Sequence record: NC_106514.1
DNA length: 64,000 nucleotides
Reading direction: 5' to 3' (one strand)
Origin: Escherichia phage vB_EcoS_ESCO40
Shown here piece after piece: positions 5,909 through 46,284 of this stretch. Within the stretch, counting starts at the first letter, position 1; the number at the start of each line of letters is the position of its first letter. The position numbers and the translations under genes are program-made. The notes below the pieces were generated by a model, which made no database searches, was not told the origin of the DNA, and saw only the letters and a list, made by a program, of their open reading frames with translations.

Positions 5909-6125
5909 AAAATGGGAAACAAGGAAGTTTCCAGTAAAAGAACGTAAGGTTCCTGTTTATGATACTTCGGAAAAGCTATGTAGGGTGGTACCACACAGAT
6001 TAGCTGGTATCCCTAACATATCCGAGTGGTTACTTAAACAACGGAGGACTAGCGTATCCCTCCGCATAGGGTTTGAGTTAGATAAAGTATATGCTGAACT
6101 TTCTTCTTTGCTCAAAGAATCATAA
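5883..6125 (+). CDS. hypothetical protein (80 aa)
   Basis: ORF overlapping the end of the upstream gene; no motif recognised. Confidence 0.35.
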   Translation: MLEMTVKNKKWETRKFPVKERKVPVYDTSEKLCRVVPHRLAGIPNISEWLLKQRRTSVSLRIGFELDKVYAELSSLLKES

Positions 6126-6133
6126 AAAATTAT

Positions 6134-6162
6134 TTGCTTTCAGGAAAAATTTTCTGTATAAT
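6134..6162 (+). promoter_or_regulatory. T5-type early promoter (P2)
   Basis: TTGCTT-17 bp-TATAAT then AGATTCATAAATTTGAGAGAGGAG. Confidence 0.75.
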
Positions 6163-6193
6163 AGATTCATAAATTTGAGAGAGGAGTTTAAAT

Positions 6194-6898
6194 ATGGCTG
6201 GTTCTCGCAGAAAGAAACATATCCATGAAATCCCGGATGAAGTCTTTAAAAAAGTTATAGAGCATCTGGAGAACGGTGGTACTAAGAAAGCAGCATGTGA
6301 AATGCTCGGCGTATCATCCAATCCAACTATGGAAAGGATGATTGAAGAATGGCAAGACCGCCAGATTCAAGTTGCCGAAATGAAGAAAAAGAAACGTGGT
6401 ACACTCATTGAAGGTATTGAGTTGGCCAACGTTATTGAGCAGTATCTATCTGGTGACTCCTTTGAGGAGATTGCCGATCGTAATTATCGTTCTGTAGCAA
6501 TGGTTAAATCTGTTCTGGAACGATATGGTGCTCTACTTCGTTTGAACGATATTGTAGATCCATTGAATCCACCAATTATTCCTGATGATGCTGTAGCAGA
6601 AGAATTTGAGGTAGGCGAGCTTGTTTGGGTTCCTGGATACCAGTGTATCGGTGAAATCAAAAAGGCAATGGATAATCCTGTTGGTTGCTACCGTGTATGG
6701 CTTCTATCAGAAGGCAAACAACAGAACGTTCATTATATGAATTATGAATTAGCTTCTGTAAAGCATTTGGAAAAGTTAGGGGTTGACGTAAAATCTCTGG
6801 GGTACAAGTGGACTCGTGAAGAAGTTATTACGTTGATTAACGAAGCTGTTAAGGCTGCCCTGAAACTTGATAAAGAAAAAGGAAAACGCCGTGAGTAG
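6194..6898 (+). CDS. putative DNA-binding protein
   Basis: GAGAGGAG RBS 7 nt before ATG; N-terminal helix-turn-helix-like segment GGTKKAACEMLGVS. Confidence 0.6.
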   Translation: MAGSRRKKHIHEIPDEVFKKVIEHLENGGTKKAACEMLGVSSNPTMERMIEEWQDRQIQVAEMKKKKRGTLIEGIELANVIEQYLSGDSFEEIADRNYRSVAMVKSVLERYGALLRLNDIVDPLNPPIIPDDAVAEEFEVGELVWVPGYQCIGEIKKAMDNPVGCYRVWLLSEGKQQNVHYMNYELASVKHLEKLGVDVKSLGYKWTREEVITLINEAVKAALKLDKEKGKRRE

Positions 6899-7142
6899 AC
6901 TAACTGATTTACTTAAAGATGGGGAAGTAAAAACACTATATCGCAGAAGCTGGGGTAACGATAATAACGGCTTAGTGTTACTAACTTTAGATGCTGACTC
7001 GGATGTAGCTACCCAGCATACCTGGGTAGCCGGTAACTATCCATATAGCGAGGTCGTTTCATTAACAGTATGCGAAGCTATTGCGGACGATTGGGAGGTT
7101 GCCAGCATTGATGATATGCTCGCTGTTGGCCTGGTGGAGTAA
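6891..7142 (+). CDS. hypothetical protein
   Basis: GTG start preceded by AAGGAAAA, overlapping upstream stop (GTGAGTAG); the ORF track extends to 6867. Confidence 0.4.
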   Translation: MSRLTDLLKDGEVKTLYRRSWGNDNNGLVLLTLDADSDVATQHTWVAGNYPYSEVVSLTVCEAIADDWEVASIDDMLAVGLVE

Positions 7143-7159
7143 CTACTTAAAAATTTCAG

Positions 7160-7188
7160 TTGCTTAATCCTATAATTCTTGATATAAT
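7160..7188 (+). promoter_or_regulatory. T5-type early promoter (P3)
   Basis: TTGCTT-17 bp-TATAAT. Confidence 0.7.
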
Positions 7189-7245
7189 ATTCTCATAGTT
7201 TGAAAGAACTATTCTGTTTAATTCTTAATTAAGGAAATATAAAAT

Positions 7246-7656
7246 ATGACTACTCCAACTCAGTGGACTGATGAACTGTTCGAAAAAATGTCTTCCGAAT
7301 ACGTTGCTCGTATGGAGCAATTCCCAGAGGATGAACGTCCGAGTGTTAGTATGGAAATTGTTAGTGAAATTGCCCAAGAAAATGGTGTAACTCCGAACGG
7401 TTTTCGTATGAAGCTGACTAAAGCAGGTGTGTATATCAAGAAAGCTGCTGGTTCTGCTTCTAAATCTAGCGCATCTACTGGAGAAAAAGCTTCTGGTGGT
7501 TCTCGTACCTCCAAAGCCCAAGCTCATGCCGACCTGCGTTCAGCATTCTCTGATGCTGGCTTAGCACCAGATTTTCTGGATGATGCAATTATCGACAAAC
7601 TGACCGGTAAAGCGGCCGCTCATCTGGCAGAAGCAATCCGAGCTATCACTAAGTAA
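7246..7656 (+). CDS. hypothetical abundant early protein
   Basis: AAGGA RBS; codon usage dominated by host-preferred codons (CTG, CGT, GGT); Ala/Ser-rich. Confidence 0.55.
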   Translation: MTTPTQWTDELFEKMSSEYVARMEQFPEDERPSVSMEIVSEIAQENGVTPNGFRMKLTKAGVYIKKAAGSASKSSASTGEKASGGSRTSKAQAHADLRSAFSDAGLAPDFLDDAIIDKLTGKAAAHLAEAIRAITK

Positions 7657-7693
7657 TATTTAGATAAATCCACCAACAAAAGGAACTACAGTT

Positions 7694-7990
7694 ATGACCA
7701 AAGCTGAAATTATCGCACAGTGTGAAAAATTTGGTGAGTTTTATCTTCATTACGAGAAACTTCGTCAGAAAGGAACCACGTACCTTCAGGGTACAATGGA
7801 ATTTGATCCGGCCCAAGATAAATATCTGGCTGAGCGTATTAAACGTGAACGTATTCGTAAAGCGAAAGATGATGAAATCCTTGTCTTCTCTCGTACTAAT
7901 GATAGCTTCCGTTTTATTCCTGTCGAGAAAGTTCGTCGTGTGACTAGCCTCCAATCAGAGTTAGATCGTGCTTCTCCAGTAGGCCGATAA
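7694..7990 (+). CDS. hypothetical protein (98 aa)
   Basis: AAGGA RBS; followed by a strong intrinsic terminator. Confidence 0.5.
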   Translation: MTKAEIIAQCEKFGEFYLHYEKLRQKGTTYLQGTMEFDPAQDKYLAERIKRERIRKAKDDEILVFSRTNDSFRFIPVEKVRRVTSLQSELDRASPVGR

Positions 7991-8000
7991 GAAAACAATT

Positions 8001-8022
8001 AGCCCCTATATGGGGCTTTTTG
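8001..8022 (+). terminator. intrinsic terminator
   Basis: AGCCCC-TATAT-GGGGCT hairpin followed by TTTTT. Confidence 0.7.
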
Positions 8023-8040
8023 TGTATTTGGGATATGTAA

Positions 8041-8349
8041 ATGAGCGAACAGGTAAATCAAAACTATGAAGGACACGTTGATGACCAGTCCATCATACTT
8101 TGGGAGAAGGAGGGGGAACAAGTAAGATTAACAGTATCTGAATTTCGTGGGAATCTATACATGGGTATTCGTTACTGGCTTCTTGATATTAATGATGAAT
8201 GGTTTCCAACGAAATCTGGCTTCTCTTTTCCTTACACCCTAGAAACAACATCACAGCTTTTCTATGCGTTTACACAGATTCTTAGTGAATCTGAGGTTTT
8301 ACATGAAGTACAGAAACGAGCTGAAGAACTCAAAGCCAAGAATGCCTAG
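8041..8349 (+). CDS. PC4/YdbC-like ssDNA-binding protein
   Basis: LTVSEFRGNLYMGIRYWL...WFPTKSGFSFP resembles the PC4-like fold signature; bracketed by two terminators. Confidence 0.45.
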   Translation: MSEQVNQNYEGHVDDQSIILWEKEGEQVRLTVSEFRGNLYMGIRYWLLDINDEWFPTKSGFSFPYTLETTSQLFYAFTQILSESEVLHEVQKRAEELKAKNA

Positions 8350-8434: not shown

Positions 8435-8635
8435 ATGGCAATGACAGTAACACTTCCCAAGATTCAAGCAAAACTTAATCTACTTTCCACAGCACGTATT
8501 AATTATCAAGATAGCATAGGCACAGTAAATCAAAAAGCGTACAAAGATGCGTTTCTGAAAGAATCTGCTGATTTGATGGATATGGTTACACAATATAATA
8601 AAGAACTCAAGATGGAAATCGCCGATGATGAATAA
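8435..8635 (+). CDS. hypothetical protein
   Basis: ATG 8 nt after GAGAGGA; the track ORF from 8420 would start inside the conserved promoter leader. Confidence 0.45.
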   Translation: MAMTVTLPKIQAKLNLLSTARINYQDSIGTVNQKAYKDAFLKESADLMDMVTQYNKELKMEIADDE

Positions 8636-9599
8636 TGTAAAAGGCTTTATTAGGCGTTGTCAAGAAGCATATTATCAAGGCATGTCTTTAATCTCTGATG
8701 AGGAGTATGATTGCCTGGTAAAACGCTTCCCGTTAGAAGAAGAGATCGGGCCTAAAGGTGATATTCCACATCTGTATCGTATGTATTCTTTACAGAAAGT
8801 TTATTATAATCGTGGAGATAAACCCCCATTTAACCCCTTAGGTCAGGTAGAAACTGATAAGTTAGATGGTTGTGCAATTTCTCTGTTATATATTAACGGC
8901 GAATTTGTCCAAGCATTAACCCGTGGTAATGGTATTCTAGGGAATGATGTCACAAGCAACGTAAGATTGCTGAACATTCCTAAAAAGATTTCCCAAAAAG
9001 TACCTACTCAAATCACTGGTGAAGTTCTAATTACAAAAGAAGTAGAAAATAAACGTAACTTTGCCTCTGGTGCTATTAACCTCAAAGATAGTGATGATTT
9101 CGTACAACGCATTGGAGAAGGCGGTTTAATCTTTGTTGCTTACGGTATCCAATGTTCTGCTGAATCTGTAGGTATTACAGAAGCATACTTAAAAGATATG
9201 CTTTGGCTAGAGAATGAGAACTTCTTAACAGTTGTTAATGTGCGTTCCTTCTTTAAATGGATTCCGACGGACGGTAAAGTTGTTCGTATTAATGACAACA
9301 ACAAATTCTTCCGTGAAGGCTGGACTAATAAATTCCCTCGTGGAGCATTCGCTATTAAAGAGGATGAAGAAGGCGAAATTACAACTCTTACTAAAGTTGA
9401 ATGGCAGGTAGGGGCTTCTGGTAAAGTAACTCCAGTTGGTTATTTCGAACCGGTAATTATTGATGATGCTACAATTGTTAAGGCGACTCTTAATAACGTT
9501 GATTATATTAACTCTCTCGATCTAGAGATCGGTTGCCAGATTCGAGTGATTCGTGCTGGTGGTGTAATCCCGTGCATAGTAGAGCGAGTATACGATTAA
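8625..9599 (+). CDS. NAD-dependent DNA ligase, N-terminal fragment (Ia-like, adenylation and OB regions)
   Basis: KLDG adenylation motif (KxDG); SDEEYD Ia-like segment; ends where a Zn-finger would follow in an intact LigA. Confidence 0.8.
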   Translation: MMNNVKGFIRRCQEAYYQGMSLISDEEYDCLVKRFPLEEEIGPKGDIPHLYRMYSLQKVYYNRGDKPPFNPLGQVETDKLDGCAISLLYINGEFVQALTRGNGILGNDVTSNVRLLNIPKKISQKVPTQITGEVLITKEVENKRNFASGAINLKDSDDFVQRIGEGGLIFVAYGIQCSAESVGITEAYLKDMLWLENENFLTVVNVRSFFKWIPTDGKVVRINDNNKFFREGWTNKFPRGAFAIKEDEEGEITTLTKVEWQVGASGKVTPVGYFEPVIIDDATIVKATLNNVDYINSLDLEIGCQIRVIRAGGVIPCIVERVYD

Positions 9600-9649
9600 T
9601 ACATAACCCTTTGCTACCCATCTACCATATCGGAATTATAAAGTGGTTA

Positions 9650-9678
9650 TTGACATTTTCGCCGCTTAGGTATATACT
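9650..9678 (+). promoter_or_regulatory. sigma70 consensus-like promoter in the ligase gap
   Basis: TTGACA-17 bp-TATACT. Confidence 0.6.
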
Positions 9679-9742
9679 ATTATCATTCAGTTGAGGGATA
9701 GAAAGTTATGGCGAGGGTAAGCAAAGTTAGTTAAAATTGTAG

Positions 9743-9771
9743 TTGCTAAATGCTTAAATACTTGCTATAAT
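9743..9771 (+). promoter_or_regulatory. T5-type early promoter (P5)
   Basis: TTGCTA-17 bp-TATAAT then ATTTATATAAATTGATAAGGAAG. Confidence 0.75.
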
Positions 9772-9801
9772 ATTTATATAAATTGATAAGGAAGAAATTT
9801 G

Positions 9802-10581
9802 ATGAAAATCGAAATTCCAACACAATGTCCCTCTTGTGGTTCTAAGCTAGATCTTGTCAACGGACAATTATTCTGTCGTAATAAGTCCAACTGTCCAGCG
9901 CAATCAAGTAAGTTAATTGAGAACTTCTGTACAAAAATGAAGTTAAAGGGCTTTGGCCCGAAAACTATTGAGAAGCTGGAGCTGACGAAGATTTCAGAAC
10001 TATTTTACCTAACCGAAGAAGATTTGGTTAGAGCCGTGGGTAGCAAGGTTGCCGCTAAGTTAATTAGCGAATTAAATACTAAAGTTCGCGGAGACATTGA
10101 CTTTGGTTCAGTTCTCGGTTCTTTAGGAATCCCTCTAATTGGAGAGGTTGCAGCAAAGAAATTGTCCCAAAATTGCACCAGTTTTCAAGATGTGAGAGCT
10201 GATGGCAAAGCTGGAGAAAATTATAAAGCCTGGCTAAATTCCCCACAAGGCAAGGATGTTATCGAATTACCGTGGAAATTCACAACTGGTATTAAAGGTG
10301 CTAAAGCTGGGGTCATCATTACTGATGGTCTAGTAGCCCAGCCAAATGGAATCACGGTGTGTATTACCGGGTCTTTGCAAGATTTTGCAAATAGAACGGA
10401 TGCAACAAATTATTTAGAAGGTCTAGGGTATACTGTTAAAAAATCAGTTACCAAAGACGTTAAATACCTAATCTGTGAGGATGAATCGAAGCGTTCTTCC
10501 TCATCTTATAAGAAAGCCGAAACGAATGGGATAGAAATCCTGTCGATTAAAGAACTATTGGAGAAAAATAATAATGTCTAA
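9802..10581 (+). CDS. NAD-dependent DNA ligase, C-terminal fragment (Zn finger, HhH, BRCT-like)
   Basis: CPSCGS...CRNKSNC zinc finger at N-terminus; ITGSL BRCT-like segment; TAAGGAAG RBS 8 nt upstream. Confidence 0.75.
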   Translation: MKIEIPTQCPSCGSKLDLVNGQLFCRNKSNCPAQSSKLIENFCTKMKLKGFGPKTIEKLELTKISELFYLTEEDLVRAVGSKVAAKLISELNTKVRGDIDFGSVLGSLGIPLIGEVAAKKLSQNCTSFQDVRADGKAGENYKAWLNSPQGKDVIELPWKFTTGIKGAKAGVIITDGLVAQPNGITVCITGSLQDFANRTDATNYLEGLGYTVKKSVTKDVKYLICEDESKRSSSSYKKAETNGIEILSIKELLEKNNNV

Positions 10582-11341
10582 ACTGAACTGGAACGTAGAA
10601 GGTGTAACCGAGTCTCTGAAAGCAAAAGCCACTGCTCTGGGTGTTGATGTAATCTCTCAAGAACAAGTAGCTACTATCGCTGCTGAACTGGCCGCTGAAA
10701 CTGGCAAAGACGTTACCGCTCGCTCTGTTGGCTCTAAGCTGCGTAAAGAAGGTTTCGAAGTACAGAAAGCTAACGAAGTACAGAAATCTCCGTGGACTCC
10801 TGAGCAGGAAGCTGAACTGGTTGATTTCCTGAACGCTCATGCTGGTCAGTATACTTATGCTGAAATCGCTGCTGCTGTAGCTGGTGGTCAATTTGGTGCT
10901 AAGCAGGTACAGGGTAAGATCCTGAGTCTGGAAATGACCGCTTCTGTTAAACCAACTGAAAAAGCTGCTGCTGTTCGTTCCTTCACTCCGGATGAAGAAA
11001 CTGACTTTGTTAATCAGGTTGTTGCTGGTGCTACTATTGAAGCTATCGCTGCTCACTTCGGTCGTAATATCAAGCAGATCCGTGGTAAAGCTCTGAGTCT
11101 GCTGCGTGAAGGTCGTATCGCTGCTATGCCGGTACAGGAAACTTCAAGTGCTAAAACCCGTGAAGATCTGTTAGAAGGTCTGGATCTGGCTAATATGACC
11201 GTTGCTGAGATCGCTGAGAAAACTGGTAAGTCTGAGCGCGGTGTTAAATCTATGCTGTCTCGTCGTGGTCTGGTTGCTAAGGACTATGATGGTGCCGCTA
11301 AGCGTGCTAAACTGGATGCAAAAGCTGCGGCTGCTGAATAA
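10574..11341 (+). CDS. hypothetical abundant protein with internal repeats
   Basis: Three to four internal copies of a TxxE(I/V)AxxxG...SL-R-G module; host-preferred codon usage. Confidence 0.55.
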   Translation: MSKLNWNVEGVTESLKAKATALGVDVISQEQVATIAAELAAETGKDVTARSVGSKLRKEGFEVQKANEVQKSPWTPEQEAELVDFLNAHAGQYTYAEIAAAVAGGQFGAKQVQGKILSLEMTASVKPTEKAAAVRSFTPDEETDFVNQVVAGATIEAIAAHFGRNIKQIRGKALSLLREGRIAAMPVQETSSAKTREDLLEGLDLANMTVAEIAEKTGKSERGVKSMLSRRGLVAKDYDGAAKRAKLDAKAAAAE

Positions 11342-11358
11342 TCTGGTAAATTAAACCT

Positions 11359-11390
11359 AAGGGGAGGGGGCTATGCTCCTTCCCCTTTTT
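11359..11390 (+). terminator. putative intrinsic terminator
   Basis: AAGGGGAGG...CCTTCCCC imperfect hairpin followed by TTTTT. Confidence 0.55.
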
Positions 11391-11423
11391 GCATTTAGAA
11401 GGCACGAAAGCGTGCAAAGGAGA

Positions 11424-12896
11424 ATGACCTTGTTTAACGTGCAAGCTGTAGTGTTGAAGATGCTTCTAGCTTCAGAACAGAAGCAAATAGCATTGGAAAC
11501 ATTCTCAAAACTGCATAAAGATCATTTTAATGACGCTTTCTCCTCAATTTACCAAGCCGTCCAGAATTATTATAAAAAATATAACACAATGCCGTCCATT
11601 GACGCACTGATGCTTGAGGCTAATAGGAACGCCCGCCTTTCTCAAGCTCTAGTCGTTTTAGCTAACACTCAAATTCCAGAAGTTAGCATGGAACAGGCAC
11701 TTGAAGTCTTAGAGGCCGAGTATACACAGGATTTATTCCTGAAGCTTCTAGAAACAGACGTGCTTCAAGATTTAACAATGCTGGATCAGGGAGAAATTCT
11801 TAACCGAGTTGCCTCCCTTCACTTAAAATTAGAAGAGAAAGTAACGAATACTGGAAAAGTATTCAACGCAGATAACATGCGTATTTTCCAGAGAGAAGAA
11901 GATACCAAACTGAACTTAATCGCTCTTGGTATTTGTAATGAGTTCGATGCTCAAATTGGTTTAGCTCGCACAGAAACGTTACTGCTTGGTGGTTGGCGTG
12001 GTACTGGTAAATCCATTATCTGTTCAAACATACAGGTTCAGCAATATTTGAATGGAGATATTGCTCCATACTTCTCAATTGAGATGAAAGAACATGAAGT
12101 ATTTAGACGTAATCTAGCCATGTTAGCTGGTGTATCAGCACTAGCAATGCGTAATAATACTCTAGAAGGTGCAGCTCTGTTGAGATTAGCCAGAACTAGA
12201 GCTAGGATGTTTAATGGTGGTGAGGAGCTTTTCGATAACTTCGTTAAACAGTACACAATGGCTAAGATGAGTGATTTCTACGATATGGAAAGTAAGCTAA
12301 TAGAAGGATATGAGCTACATACTCCTATGATTATTGTTTATGATCCTGAGCTGTCTATTACAACAGTTGACGTAGAATTAAATAAATTAGTTGCTAGATA
12401 TGGGGATAAAGTTACAGTAGCTTTACTGGACTATATTAACCAAACCCGACTTCCAGACTCTAAAACCATTGATATGTATGACTGGAAAGAACAGATGGTT
12501 GTTAGCTCGTCTTTCAAATCTATCTGCCAGAAACATAACGTGGCTGGTGTAGCCCCTTACCAGATTGATCAAGATGGTAGAACACGTATGTCAAAGGGGA
12601 TTCTTGATTCCGCAGACATGGCTGCTAATCTTAATGCTGCTAAAGCTGATAATGGTCAAGGTGCTATTATGTTTGACTTCGTTAAGACCCGTTCTTCTGA
12701 TAGCGTGAAGTTTATGCCTAAAATGAACTGGGAAACCCTGCGAATGGATAACACTACCAACCTAGCAATGGAAGATATATCTCAAATGGAAGCTGAGTTC
12801 GTTATCCCTATTGAGAAGGATAAGCCAGCTCAATCTAAACGTGCTAAGAAAGACAAAGCTGAAAATTCAACAGGTGAACAGGCCAGCGATATATGA
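11424..12896 (+). CDS. DnaB-like replicative helicase
   Basis: Walker A GWRGTGKS and FSIEMKEHEVFRRNLAMLAGVS similar to DnaB motif H1a; start ambiguous (11373, 11424 or 11460). Confidence 0.7.
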   Translation: MTLFNVQAVVLKMLLASEQKQIALETFSKLHKDHFNDAFSSIYQAVQNYYKKYNTMPSIDALMLEANRNARLSQALVVLANTQIPEVSMEQALEVLEAEYTQDLFLKLLETDVLQDLTMLDQGEILNRVASLHLKLEEKVTNTGKVFNADNMRIFQREEDTKLNLIALGICNEFDAQIGLARTETLLLGGWRGTGKSIICSNIQVQQYLNGDIAPYFSIEMKEHEVFRRNLAMLAGVSALAMRNNTLEGAALLRLARTRARMFNGGEELFDNFVKQYTMAKMSDFYDMESKLIEGYELHTPMIIVYDPELSITTVDVELNKLVARYGDKVTVALLDYINQTRLPDSKTIDMYDWKEQMVVSSSFKSICQKHNVAGVAPYQIDQDGRTRMSKGILDSADMAANLNAAKADNGQGAIMFDFVKTRSSDSVKFMPKMNWETLRMDNTTNLAMEDISQMEAEFVIPIEKDKPAQSKRAKKDKAENSTGEQASDI

Positions 12897-13783
12897 GTAG
12901 AATAACAGAACTACTTGATCTGAAAGGCATTGAATATAAAGACACAGGTGGGGACATCCTCATCTGTTGTCTCAATCCAGATCATGACGATAAACACCCA
13001 AGTTTGCGTATTGACCCTGAAACAGGTATTATGCACTGCTTGAGTTGTGGCTTCGGTAAAGGTATACCGAGCATTTACCATTATTTTAATGAGACTCAGT
13101 ACCGACAGTCCCCAAGGCTATCGCAAGTACGTAAAAAGATTTCAGAGATTAGGAATGGATCAACGAATCTTGCAATTCCTGAATCTGCTTACCTTTTCGA
13201 AGGTGATTTCCGGGGTATAAGTTCTAAGACCTTGAAGAAATATTTTGCTTTCCAACACCAAGAGAGCTGGGAAGGCAGAATTGTATTCCCAATCACAGAT
13301 GCTGTTGGACGCAATATCCTATTTTTGGGTCGTTCTATAAACAGTTCTGCCCCTCCTAAATACTTAGTAAAACCAAAACAAGTTTCACCGCCAATTTTTC
13401 CTGTACGATATAATACTCCAGTTCTTATTCTAGTTGAAGGCATCTTTGATATGCTGAACCTAGAGGATAATGGTATAGACTATGCTTCTTGCTGCTTTGG
13501 TACACATCAGTTTACTTCGGATAACATTGCAGATAAGTTCAGTCCTTATATTATTGCTGGGGTAAAAGTTGTTGTTATCTTACTAGATAATGATGCTTCC
13601 GGTAATAAAGCTGCACAAGCACTGGCCAAGCTAATTCGTACAAAAACGCGTTTAACACCTGTAGTTGCTAACTTTCTTCTGCCCGAAGGTAAAGACCCCG
13701 GTGATTTAAATAAAGAAGAGATTGATATGTTAGCAAAACGTATTGAAATTTTAGTTGCTGAATCACTTAAAGATTTGGTATAA
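12893..13783 (+). CDS. DnaG-like DNA primase
   Basis: CHC2-type zinc finger (CCLNPDHDDKHPSL...CLSCGFG); TOPRIM-like LVEGIFD and LLDNDASGNKAA. Confidence 0.8.
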   Translation: MSRITELLDLKGIEYKDTGGDILICCLNPDHDDKHPSLRIDPETGIMHCLSCGFGKGIPSIYHYFNETQYRQSPRLSQVRKKISEIRNGSTNLAIPESAYLFEGDFRGISSKTLKKYFAFQHQESWEGRIVFPITDAVGRNILFLGRSINSSAPPKYLVKPKQVSPPIFPVRYNTPVLILVEGIFDMLNLEDNGIDYASCCFGTHQFTSDNIADKFSPYIIAGVKVVVILLDNDASGNKAAQALAKLIRTKTRLTPVVANFLLPEGKDPGDLNKEEIDMLAKRIEILVAESLKDLV

Positions 13784-18860: not shown

Positions 18861-19145
18861 ATGCTTACAGAGCCTGATGCTCACCAATTATTGGTCGGTT
18901 CCTCATTTATTTTGAATGAATCAACAATAGTTGATAATCCAAATAAATTGTCTAATAGACAACTGGCAGAATATCTAGGAATTTTAAGTCTACGAAATTA
19001 TGCCGAATACAAGTTTACAAACGATCCTAGTTTGGACATACAATATGTTCCAGTATGGATACCACGTTTAGTAATCGACACTAACCCACTAATCGCAATT
19101 AACAAATCGAAATTAATCTTTAAAGAGGAAATAAAATATGGCTAA
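18861..19145 (+). CDS. hypothetical protein (94 aa)
   Basis: ORF with weak RBS; ends at the start of the next gene. Confidence 0.35.
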   Translation: MLTEPDAHQLLVGSSFILNESTIVDNPNKLSNRQLAEYLGILSLRNYAEYKFTNDPSLDIQYVPVWIPRLVIDTNPLIAINKSKLIFKEEIKYG

Positions 19146-19911
19146 GTCTTGGGGCGAAACTACTGGCGGTTCTAACGATAAAATCGAATTCCTGAAGTTC
19201 AACAACGGTATCACTCGTGTTCGTATCGTTTCTGGTGTTCTTCCACGTTATGTCTATTGGCTGACTAATAAAGAGGGTAGCGTAGCTCCTTTCGAATGTC
19301 TCCGTTTTAACCGCGACAAAGAGAGCTTTGTTCGTGGTAAAGCTGATCCGGTTCATGAGATGGGTTTCTTTGAGAAAGAGCTGGATAAAGATGGTAATCG
19401 CGTTCCGCTGAAACCGAAGAAAAACTATATCGCTTTTGTTATCGACCGTTCTGATAACAAACTGAAAGTAATGGAAGTCAAGGCTACTATTCTGAAAGGC
19501 ATCCAGTCTATCATGAAGCAGTTGAATCTGGCGACTCCGTTTGATATTGATATTTCTATTGAGAAGAAGGGTAAAGGTTTCGATACCGAGTATGATGTAC
19601 AGCAGATTGCTGCTATGCAGTTCCAAATTAAGCTGCAAGATCCTAACAGCGCAGAATCTAAGCAATATGCTGCGGATGTAGATCTGATCGGTGAAGCTAT
19701 GTGTGATGAAGATGGCGACATCATCAAGTTCGAAAAAGTTCCTTCTCTGGAACAAACATATCCGGTTCCTACCTATGAAGAGCAGAAAGAAGCAATTCAA
19801 GCCTTCATGGAAGGTCGTGAGAATAAAGATGATGATGCCAAATCTGGTAACAGCAATGCTGGTTCCCAGAAAGGTATTGACCAAGAAGCTGCAAGCGATC
19901 TGGACGACTAA
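19138..19911 (+). CDS. putative ssDNA-binding protein (abundant early protein)
   Basis: AAGAGGAAA RBS; host-preferred codons; acidic C-terminal tail EAASDLDD typical of SSB-type proteins; not confirmed by motif. Confidence 0.4.
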   Translation: MAKSWGETTGGSNDKIEFLKFNNGITRVRIVSGVLPRYVYWLTNKEGSVAPFECLRFNRDKESFVRGKADPVHEMGFFEKELDKDGNRVPLKPKKNYIAFVIDRSDNKLKVMEVKATILKGIQSIMKQLNLATPFDIDISIEKKGKGFDTEYDVQQIAAMQFQIKLQDPNSAESKQYAADVDLIGEAMCDEDGDIIKFEKVPSLEQTYPVPTYEEQKEAIQAFMEGRENKDDDAKSGNSNAGSQKGIDQEAASDLDD

Positions 19912-44907: not shown

Positions 44908-46284
44908 TTAAGATGCAGCGTAAGTACCAGATACAACGCCATTATTAAAGTAACGTTGCAGGTTAACACGCTGAGTAACGTAGTATGCATCACGCTGTTT
45001 ACCAGCTTGGCGCTCACGTTCAACAGTAACAGCACGCTGACGCGGCATTACGAAGTTATCTTTATAAACAATAACTGCGAACTCTGCTGAGTTAGCTTTA
45101 GCTGGGAAGAATTCAGAAACTACAACCGGCAGACCGTAAATACGACCAACTTGACCTTGCAGTTTAACAGCATCGTTACCAACCTGTGCAACATCCTGCC
45201 ATTCTTCATCTTCCAGCAGATCGTAGTAAGCATCCATAGATACGATCAGTACCAGCTTGCTTAGTTTCAGACCATGACGGCCCAGTTTACGACGCAGTTT
45301 AGAGATAGTCTTAGCGGTTACCTTTACGGAACCGTCAGCTTTAGCTTCTGTGACAACCTTAGCACTATCTTCACTAGCAAGGGTCAACAGACCTTTCGGC
45401 TTACCAGAACCATCACCAGTCATAAATGCTTCTTCGATAGAAACAGCGTGTGCTTCAATCAGACGTTTACGCAGCAGCGGTAGCAGAGAGAAGATTGCAT
45501 CTTCTTCAGTTTCATCAGTAATAAAGGACTTAGCAGCCAGTTTGTAGGTTTTAAAACTAATTTCAGTTAATGTACCTTTAACTTCGTTACCAGTAGTATT
45601 GTCAGTACCATAAGCGGAAGCATCTACCCAAGTAGCTTTACCAGCTTCTGGTTCAACCAGCATAGTAAGAATCTTACTAGACATCGGCAGTTCTTCGAAC
45701 AGTGCGCCAACTACCAGTTCTTTCTGCAGGTCACGAATGATACGGGTAGAGAAAATAGTTTCGTAGTTTTCGCTAGAAACCTGAACTGAGGAAGAAGAGT
45801 TTACAGCTTTAAGGTGATTCTGACCATGTTCAGTTTCGAATACGCCTTTTTCCATTACATAAGATAACAGAACCAGTTTTTCAACTTCATCTTCAAAGGC
45901 TTCCTGAGTACCGTACAGTGCTTTAGCAACACTATCACCAACGAAGGAACGACCTTCACGAGCTGTCAGCAGGGATTTGATTTCGTCCTGAAGACCAACA
46001 ATAGTTTCCTGCTGTTTTTCTACAGTTTGTGCAAACAGTTCTGCGCTCTTCTTAGATTTTTCATCCAGGGATTTAACCAGTTCCAGAGCTTCTTCCAGAC
46101 GCTTACGGTCTTCGCCAACTGCTTTAGAAACCAGGTCATTCATACGAGCCAGTTCTTTTTCTTCCTGCTCTTTACGCATACGTTCAGCTTCCTGAGCTTT
46201 CTGAGCAGCGGTCAGACCTTCCAGAGATTTAGCCAGATCACCCAGACCAAGTTCTTCTTTCAGCTTATTAATATCAATAGTCAT
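44908..46284 (-). CDS. major capsid protein precursor (pb8-like)
   Basis: 458 aa; N-terminal coiled-coil scaffold-like domain then HK97-fold-like body; host-preferred codon usage. Confidence 0.85.
   Translation of the reverse strand: MTIDINKLKEELGLGDLAKSLEGLTAAQKAQEAERMRKEQEEKELARMNDLVSKAVGEDRKRLEEALELVKSLDEKSKKSAELFAQTVEKQQETIVGLQDEIKSLLTAREGRSFVGDSVAKALYGTQEAFEDEVEKLVLLSYVMEKGVFETEHGQNHLKAVNSSSSVQVSSENYETIFSTRIIRDLQKELVVGALFEELPMSSKILTMLVEPEAGKATWVDASAYGTDNTTGNEVKGTLTEISFKTYKLAAKSFITDETEEDAIFSLLPLLRKRLIEAHAVSIEEAFMTGDGSGKPKGLLTLASEDSAKVVTEAKADGSVKVTAKTISKLRRKLGRHGLKLSKLVLIVSMDAYYDLLEDEEWQDVAQVGNDAVKLQGQVGRIYGLPVVVSEFFPAKANSAEFAVIVYKDNFVMPRQRAVTVERERQAGKQRDAYYVTQRVNLQRYFNNGVVSGTYAAS

Follow-up and report, generated by a model that had tools for sequence, protein, structure and literature searches.

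An orthologue of bacteriophage T5 gene D5 in Escherichia phage vB_EcoS_ESCO40, with four predicted helix-turn-helix modules and strong host-like codon bias

The window examined in this study is the whole 64,000-nt stretch of Escherichia phage vB_EcoS_ESCO40 (NC_106514.1), whose sequence places it among the T5-like phages (family Demerecviridae). The gene considered here is located in the replication module, between ligB and the gene for the replicative helicase, and its surroundings contain the features listed below, where protein-coding genes other than D5 follow the open reading frame (ORF) list and the annotation of their T5 counterparts.

8625-9599: ligA, NAD-dependent DNA ligase (split)
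9650-9678, + strand: promoter-like site TTGACA-17-TATACT, 11/12 (promoter scan), at the position of T5 P28b
9743-9771, + strand: promoter-like site TTGCTA-17-TG-TATAAT, 10/12 (promoter scan), at the position of T5 P28a
9799-10581: ligB, NAD-dependent DNA ligase (split)
10560-10563, + strand: Shine-Dalgarno GGAG, 10 nt 5' of the D5 ATG, read from the sequence
10574-11341, + strand: coding sequence of the D5 orthologue, from the ORF list (ATG start; 255 aa, 27.1 kDa, pI 6.3)
11359-11395, + strand: intrinsic-terminator-like hairpin and T-run (terminator scan), 18 nt past the D5 stop codon
11373-12896: DnaB-like helicase
12893-13783: primase

A DNA polymerase gene, identified from the same two sources, is also among the neighbours. 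T5, Vibrio phage Pylo, and Proteus phage PM135 also have the gene order ligB, D5, helicase, primase, polymerase, with D5 amino acid identities of 51% in Pylo and 56% in PM135. The D5 ATG overlaps the last codons of ligB. Both sigma-70 promoter-like sites are located upstream of ligB, within stretches annotated as promoters in T5 (P-K 28b at L001 5057-5131, corresponding to 9630-9704 of the window, and P-K 28a at L001 5150-5224, corresponding to 9723-9797), and an ATATT motif found 3' of the -10 hexamer in the P28a-like site fits the early-promoter signature (PMC7472727). The terminator-like hairpin (11359-11387) has 13 pairs, 8 of them G-C, and a loop of 3, and is followed by TTTGCATTT. Since promoter-like sites precede ligB and a hairpin follows the D5 stop codon, the promoters, ligB, D5, and the terminator likely form a transcription unit, as judged from consensus scans and the T5 annotation. 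The original prediction had called the protein early, and its position in the replication module, 3' of two promoter-like sites that coincide with T5 P28b and P28a, bears this out. A 169-aa Ser-rich ORF on the opposite strand (10547-11056) was rejected as a gene because it mirrors the GCT-rich codons.

The ORF at 10574-11341 is identified by sequence comparison as the orthologue of bacteriophage T5 gene D5. Its DNA is 97.7% identical to T5p116 (megablast), and the T5 protein (T5p116 / T5.118) is equally long, is encoded at the corresponding place between ligB and the helicase gene, and differs from the ESCO40 protein by a few substitutions only. Residues 1-253 match PHROG 323 "transcriptional regulator, D5-like" (E 2.4e-71). 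The gene is widespread: 442 phage records were matched by megablast, while tblastn with the protein matched 904 places in 901 phage records, most of them approximately 100-128 kb in length, with a single match in nearly all. The hosts of the phages found by tblastn include Escherichia, Salmonella, Klebsiella, Proteus, Vibrio, Aeromonas, and Pectobacterium. A search of 1.84 billion cluster representatives gave 561 relatives at E ≤ 1e-3, most of which are 235-260 aa long.

The naming of this gene in public records is inconsistent. T5p116 is labelled 'putative transcription factor; contains Myb-like domain' in the T5 annotation, other phage records carry 'D5 protein/DNA-binding protein', and further labels on the matches include transcription factor, late gene transcription factor, sigma factor, SSB, and portal vertex protein; in approximately half of the public phage records among the matches listed, the product is a 'hypothetical protein'. 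In the T5 st0 record (AY692264), the note 'D5 protein' is instead placed on the adjoining dnaB gene. T5 D5 has been described as a 255-residue helix-turn-helix (HTH) protein of 26 kDa, in which mutations that escape a retron were found at G53D, W74*, V149I, and G232D (bioRxiv 10.64898/2026.07.11.737809). All four of these residues (G53, W74, V149, and G232) occupy the same positions in the ESCO40 ORF; length and escaper residues therefore both identify D5 as this gene and not as the helicase. The role of the protein had been called unknown, which was wrong: D5 has a name, and papers on it span about 45 years. The finding holds, but the protein is not a new one. Its chief value is the correct filing of the gene as that of the T5 D5 protein, which public records often leave unnamed or mislabel.

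The protein had also been predicted to contain three to four copies of a module of about 50 aa, and this proved right. Four modules were found, each with a folded part of approximately 45-60 aa and, with linkers, a period of approximately 63 aa. These modules and the helix that follows them are located as follows, according to an AlphaFold2 (AF2) model built on an alignment of homologues.

10583-10765, + strand: predicted HTH module M0, residues 4-64 (helices 11-22, 29-43, 49-58)
10787-10939, + strand: predicted HTH module M1, residues 72-122, Myb/GcrA-like (helices 76-88, 95-101, 109-118)
10976-11116, + strand: predicted HTH module M2, residues 135-181 (helices 139-150, 155-162, 166-178)
11153-11287, + strand: predicted HTH module M3, residues 194-238, sigma-70 region-4-like (helices 210-217, 221-231)
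11291-11335, + strand: predicted C-terminal Ala/Lys-rich helix, residues 240-254 (net charge +3)

The repeats are real, with significant results in self-alignment, profile, and shuffle tests, and the outcome named beforehand as a refutation (no significant internal repeats) did not occur. The best off-diagonal self-alignment of D5 scored 75, compared to 38 ± 7.5 in shuffles (0 of 100 reached 75). For pairwise comparisons, the protein was split into M0 (1-68), M1 (69-130), M2 (131-192), and M3 (193-255). On the single sequence, M1-M2 was the sole individually significant pair (z 7.1, 0 of 1000 shuffles), M0-M3 and M2-M3 were marginal (p approximately 0.04), and no comparison involving M0 or M3 rose above marginal significance, so that profiles were needed. 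With an alignment of 57 homologues (50-81% identity) as the source of module profiles, hhalign gave probabilities of 96% for M1-M2 (E 3.3e-9), 69% for M2-M3 (E 4e-5), and 30-38% for M0 against each other module (E approximately 4e-4), always in the same register. Among 100 column-shuffled controls, the scores of five module pairs were never reached and that of M1-M3 was reached once; since column shuffling destroys helical periodicity, this result points to a shared structural module and is not proof of common descent for M0 and M3. The profile comparisons mark M1 and M2 as clear duplicates, with the other pairs related at the profile level only.

Natural variants with five modules were also observed, one with M1 duplicated (P0121) and two with an M2-like module duplicated (P0182 and P0192); the number of modules has therefore changed by tandem duplication within the D5 family. 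It could be argued that the repeats are a chance effect of Ala-rich helical composition rather than true modules, given that Ala makes up 17% of the residues and that 4 of the 6 module pairs are non-significant or marginal on the single sequence, but this is almost certainly not the case: shuffles reject it (M1-M2 at z 7.1 with 0 of 1000, and at 96% by hhalign; module pairs exceeding column-shuffled controls, save that M1-M3 was reached in 1 of 100), the AF2 model contains four superposable three-helix units, and homologues carrying an additional copy of M1 or M2 exist in nature.

Structure prediction thus gave four modules, and not three, plus a C-terminal helix. The AF2 model consists of four three-helix units followed by this helix, with a mean pLDDT of 94.8 and a pTM of 0.57, a value too low to fix the modules securely relative to one another; M3 has a non-helical lead-in (196-208) before its helices. 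When the BFVD model of a Vibrio-phage D5 with 54% identity was superposed on the AF2 model, the TM was 0.76-0.79; the overall arrangement is therefore reproducible between predictions, although the pTM is just 0.57. D5 is accordingly modelled as a chain of four three-helix HTH modules of homeodomain/Myb/GcrA-like type, with conserved linkers of approximately 15 residues between them and a basic helix at the C-terminus.

Foldseek of the whole model against the PDB gave nothing significant. When the module profiles were compared to PDB sequences, M0 matched designed engrailed homeodomain variants (E 4e-5), M1/M2 gave weak matches to Myb (E 0.002-0.04), and M3 gave chance-level matches only. In Pfam, Sigma70_r4_2 on M3 (204-230) was the sole family to pass its curated threshold (29.1 bits, with a cut-off of 25.7), the match spanning profile positions 23-49 (27 of 54), a generic HTH core. 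Myb at 71-100 was sub-threshold (17.6 vs 24.4 bits in the whole protein; 13.1 bits for M1 alone), as were HTH_23, EutK_C, and HTH_28 at 145-184 (M2). With isolated modules, M3 alone passed the curated Pfam threshold and no match to GcrA was obtained. A joint M1/M2 profile did match the DNA-binding domain of GcrA (residues 2-43) at 85.5% (E 5.6e-6), the motifs in common being an initial W-T-x-E, an IA within helix 2, and, within helix 3, V-x-G-K-x-x-x-L; M0 and M3 aligned weakly with GcrA. Across the 57 homologues, Pfam matches were found to Sigma70_r4_2 in 50 (E ≤ 0.01), HTH_23 in 31, HTH_32 in 18, Myb_DNA-binding in 15 (E ≤ 0.01), and GcrA in 5, and every family matched was an HTH family. The explicit four-module HTH architecture with its natural five-module variants and the GcrA likeness of the modules are modest additions to what was known of D5. 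None of the papers found in the library searched links D5 with GcrA; the N-terminus of T5 A1 has been likened to GcrA in the literature.

Conservation is concentrated in the third helix of each module. Among the 57 homologues, the invariant residues of helix 3 are R50, K55, L56, and R57 in M0, and the invariant or near-invariant ones are Q113, G114, K115, and L117 in M1, R170, G171, K172, and L174 in M2 (G171 and K172 being invariant), and G223, L228, R230, and R231 in M3. The mean information content of helix 3 is 3.56 bits, compared to 2.66 bits elsewhere (Mann-Whitney p 2e-9). Linker residues are also conserved (V125, R135, P186, and Q188); G240 in the C-terminal helix is invariant, while K246 and, just upstream of the helix, D237 are nearly so. 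The charges of helix 3 in the four modules in turn are +4, +2, +4, and +3, while acidic parts are found in helix 1 of M1 and M2 (-4 each) and in the lead-in to M3 (-3). D5 is mildly acidic overall, its basic parts being the recognition helices, M3, and the C-terminal helix only. A pI of 6.3 is unusual for a DNA-coating protein and counts against the coating model considered below.

Host-preferred codons throughout the gene and an abundant product had both been predicted, and codon usage agrees with both. With a codon adaptation index (CAI) of 0.714, D5 ranks first among the 53 ORFs of the window (mean 0.29, sd 0.11; D5 at z 4.5). The index differs little from module to module (0.67-0.76); 189 of the 248 informative codons are the optimal choice, and 9 are rare. 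The CAI weights were the E. coli high-expression weights of Sharp & Li 1987; the effective number of codons (Nc) is independent of these weights and agrees, with 31.2 for D5 compared to 52.8 for ligB, 50.2 for the helicase, and 53.3 for the primase. The CAI of ligB is 0.229, though this gene is in the same likely transcription unit as D5. In Vibrio phage Pylo, too, D5 has the strongest bias among the genes around it (Nc 29.1 vs 38-56). Published reports point in the same direction: D5 has been described as 'very abundant in lysates' (PMC10644984), and the orthologue in phiR2-01 gave one of the strongest signals in a virion preparation (PMC8624392). Behind D5 in the CAI ranking of the window come the major head protein (0.654), the SSB (0.546), and a small 'DNA binding protein' (0.541), all three of which are needed in stoichiometric, not catalytic, amounts.

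Rice et al. in 1979 (JBC) and Fujimura and Roop in 1983 (J Virol) reportedly described gpD5 as an approximately 29-kDa protein with cooperative binding to duplex DNA and an inhibitory effect on the T5 polymerase at nicked duplexes; the calculated 27.1 kDa is consistent with this size. According to the title of a 1979 paper by McCorquodale (cited in PMC12630848), D5 of T5 and BF23 is a DNA-binding protein that affects replication and late gene expression. The protein is a monomer by mass photometry, is toxic if expressed alone, and triggers the type IX retron-Kva2, for which the authors proposed that the D5 HTH binds the stem-loop of the retron-Kva2 msDNA (bioRxiv 10.64898/2026.07.11.737809). 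In the same report, a T5 escaper with W74* in D5 reportedly still forms plaques, an observation that fits poorly with an indispensable role of D5. No fitness value specific to D5 appears in the main text of the CRISPRi-ART paper, and the DRT4 paper was rejected as a source on D5 because it concerns T5 ORF55. The prediction had offered a nucleic-acid-binding or a scaffold protein: the first is upheld by the four predicted HTH modules together with the literature on the T5 and BF23 orthologues, while no support was found for the second.

The most probable reading of these results is that D5 coats duplex phage DNA by means of its four recognition helices and in doing so modulates replication and the early-to-late switch. 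All four modules would be working, DNA-contacting HTHs on one monomer, and the recognition helices of such a monomer would engage successive stretches of the duplex with little sequence specificity; the binding mode, the site size, and the absence of sequence specificity are inferred. Because it is made in stoichiometric amounts, D5 could then coat replicating phage DNA in the manner of a phage-encoded nucleoid protein. Such a coat may modulate the access of polymerase and may redirect the sigma-70 RNA polymerase of the host from early promoters to late ones. Four DNA-contacting modules and coating of the duplex would together account for the effects on both replication and the switch.

It is less likely, and on balance improbable, that D5 is a sequence-specific transcription factor or a sigma-like appropriator that steers host RNA polymerase to T5 late promoters. 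Several records do carry annotations of this kind ('putative transcription factor D5', 'late gene transcription factor', 'RNA polymerase sigma factor'), and the title of the 1979 paper attributes to D5 an effect on late gene expression. M3 passes the Sigma70_r4_2 threshold, as noted, and 50 of 57 homologues match the same family; however, the match spans just 27 of the 54 profile positions, and no Sigma70_r2 match was found at E ≤ 10 with either the whole protein or single modules. An identity as a sigma factor was rejected because D5 is without region 2. M1 and M2 are similar to the DNA-binding domain of GcrA, which regulates in conjunction with sigma-70, but the sigma-interacting domain of GcrA was not detected in D5 by Pfam or in the model. 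Eukaryotic multi-Myb arrays are sequence-specific, which would favour a transcription factor, whereas the codon bias and reported abundance of D5 fit structural or DNA-coating proteins and not regulators. In addition, the T5 late promoters are ordinary sigma-70 promoters, and RNA polymerase from T5-infected cells (3, 15, and 25 min) was accompanied by gpA1, a pb8 fragment, and gpT5.026, with no protein of approximately 27 kDa (PMC7472727). The presence of transcription factor and sigma factor annotations in several records is to be set against the coating model.

A role as the replication SSB of the phage, as D5 is annotated in Klebsiella phage vB_Kpn_3, would suit a highly expressed product of the replication module but can be dismissed with near certainty, as one record alone bears this label, the D5 model consists nearly entirely of helical HTH units with no OB fold and no strand of at least 3 residues, and the window contains both a separate SSB gene (19138-19911, PHROG 1607, E 2e-106) and a PC4-like protein (8041-8349). 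Classical work reportedly found that D5 prefers duplex DNA, which also counts against an SSB.

D5 can be compared to several known systems. GcrA has one DNA-binding domain and a C-terminal sigma-70-interacting domain, while D5 has four modules and lacks a counterpart of the latter; no Pfam match to GcrA (PF07750) was found in D5, and beyond the four HTH modules the model contains just one short helix. GcrA prefers N6-methyladenine sites. The three-helix fold with a recognition helix of Myb/SANT domains (PF00249) is also found in D5, but the three regularly spaced tryptophans of Myb arrays (c-Myb R1R2R3, SNAPC4) are not kept, the Pfam score is below threshold (17.6 vs 24.4 bits), and these arrays are eukaryotic, sequence-specific, low-copy regulators. 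The archaeal CRISPR-repeat-binding protein (PDB 2lvs), the bipartite domains of the Tc3 and Mos1 transposases, and POU domains have two or three modules and recognize specific sites; no significant sequence relationship of D5 to 2lvs, Tc3, Mos1, or POU was shown. The early protein p6 of phi29, which is very abundant, binds duplex DNA, coats the phage genome, and affects both replication and the early-to-late transcription switch. Its likeness to D5 is a functional analogy only, as fold and sequence are unrelated; in addition, p6 is small and works as a multimer, while D5 is monomeric, with its four DNA-binding modules covalently linked.

The module architecture and the GcrA likeness provide handles on the coupling of replication to the early-to-late switch by D5 in T5, and could also help to show why this protein is sensed by retrons. 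The DNA of T5-like phages is free of Dam, Dcm, and restriction-modification methylation through a non-specific mechanism (PMC10644984), and D5 is kept in both groups with hypomethylation, Tequintavirus and Epseptimavirus. A speculative and quite doubtful extension of the coating model is that D5 acts as a phage 'chromatin' protein, a dense GcrA-like HTH coat that would exclude host enzymes and so explain the hypomethylation of T5-like phages. If this were true, it would be this exposed HTH surface that is sensed by retrons. The GcrA-like N-terminus of T5 A1 is itself the site of mutations that escape retron Ec67.

The naming of D5 is inconsistent across public records. In the T5 st0 reference record, the region that holds both D5 and dnaB (AY692264 59255-61577, which is 6001-8323 of the compared stretch L001 and corresponds to window 10574-12896) has the note 'D5 protein' on dnaB (T5p117, 507 aa), and the 255-aa ORF is labelled 'putative transcription factor'. 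In other database records, and in the 2026 retron preprint (bioRxiv 10.64898/2026.07.11.737809), D5 is the 255-aa protein. Further public labels for the gene include sigma factor, SSB, portal vertex protein and hypothetical protein. Copies of the gene with 98-99% identity are also filed under odd hosts, namely 'Listeria phage LM 4-14-1' (database match H11, OR848168.1) and Enterococcus faecalis (partial proteins P0019 and P0041), and two further records are filed under Campylobacter. These filings of an enterobacterial phage gene under Listeria, Enterococcus faecalis and Campylobacter probably reflect contamination or mislabelling.

The number of modules varies naturally within the D5 family. 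Three members contain five modules (P0121, 309 aa; P0182, 283 aa; P0192, 289 aa), the fifth being an extra copy that is M1-like or M2-like, and the remoter matches P0245, P0254, P0258 and P0263 consist of 6-10 Myb-like or HTH repeats in long arrays. A premature stop in D5 has been reported for T5.1, an escaper of retron-Kva2, which is said to carry W74* along with G53D, V149I and G232D (bioRxiv 10.64898/2026.07.11.737809). The affected codon is located as follows:

10793-10795, plus strand: codon W74 of D5, site of the reported W74* in escaper T5.1

A stop at this codon would spare module M0 alone. T5.1 is nevertheless reported to form plaques (bioRxiv 10.64898/2026.07.11.737809), which is odd for a gene that is said to be required in replication and late expression. 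T5 A1, encoded outside the window, is reported to have 60 N-terminal residues similar to the GcrA DNA-binding domain, and mutations in A1 allow escape from retron Ec67 (bioRxiv 10.1101/2022.08.27.505566); counting D5, T5 thus has two proteins that carry GcrA-like HTH domains, each linked to a retron.

Just downstream of D5 (11359-11426), the helicase ORF has its first ATG at 11373, inside the loop of a terminator-like hairpin, and the T5 annotation takes the equivalent ATG as the start. An alternative in-frame ATG at 11424 is preceded by AAGGAG at a spacing of only 1 nt. At its other end, the helicase ORF directly overlaps the primase ORF by 4 nt (12893-12896); in T5 st0 the two are separated by the HNH-endonuclease-like ORF T5p118 (L001 8320-8853), and an insertion of this type is therefore absent from the window.

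After D5, the first three ORFs below have the highest codon adaptation index (CAI); the fourth lies two genes upstream of D5:

44908-46284, minus strand: major head protein (CAI 0.654)
19138-19911, plus strand: SSB (PHROG 1607; CAI 0.546)
7246-7656, plus strand: 136-aa 'DNA binding protein' (PHROG 1725; CAI 0.541)
8041-8349, plus strand: PC4-like protein (T5p113, 'transcriptional coactivator p15')

The 136-aa protein, whose T5 counterpart T5p111 is annotated 'hypothetical protein', may be another abundant DNA-binding protein. The PC4-like protein adds a second small nucleic-acid-binding protein to the early region that holds D5. On the strand opposite D5, a Ser-rich ORF of 169 aa (10547-11056, minus strand) was rejected as a gene, as it reflects the GCT/CTG-rich codon usage of D5.
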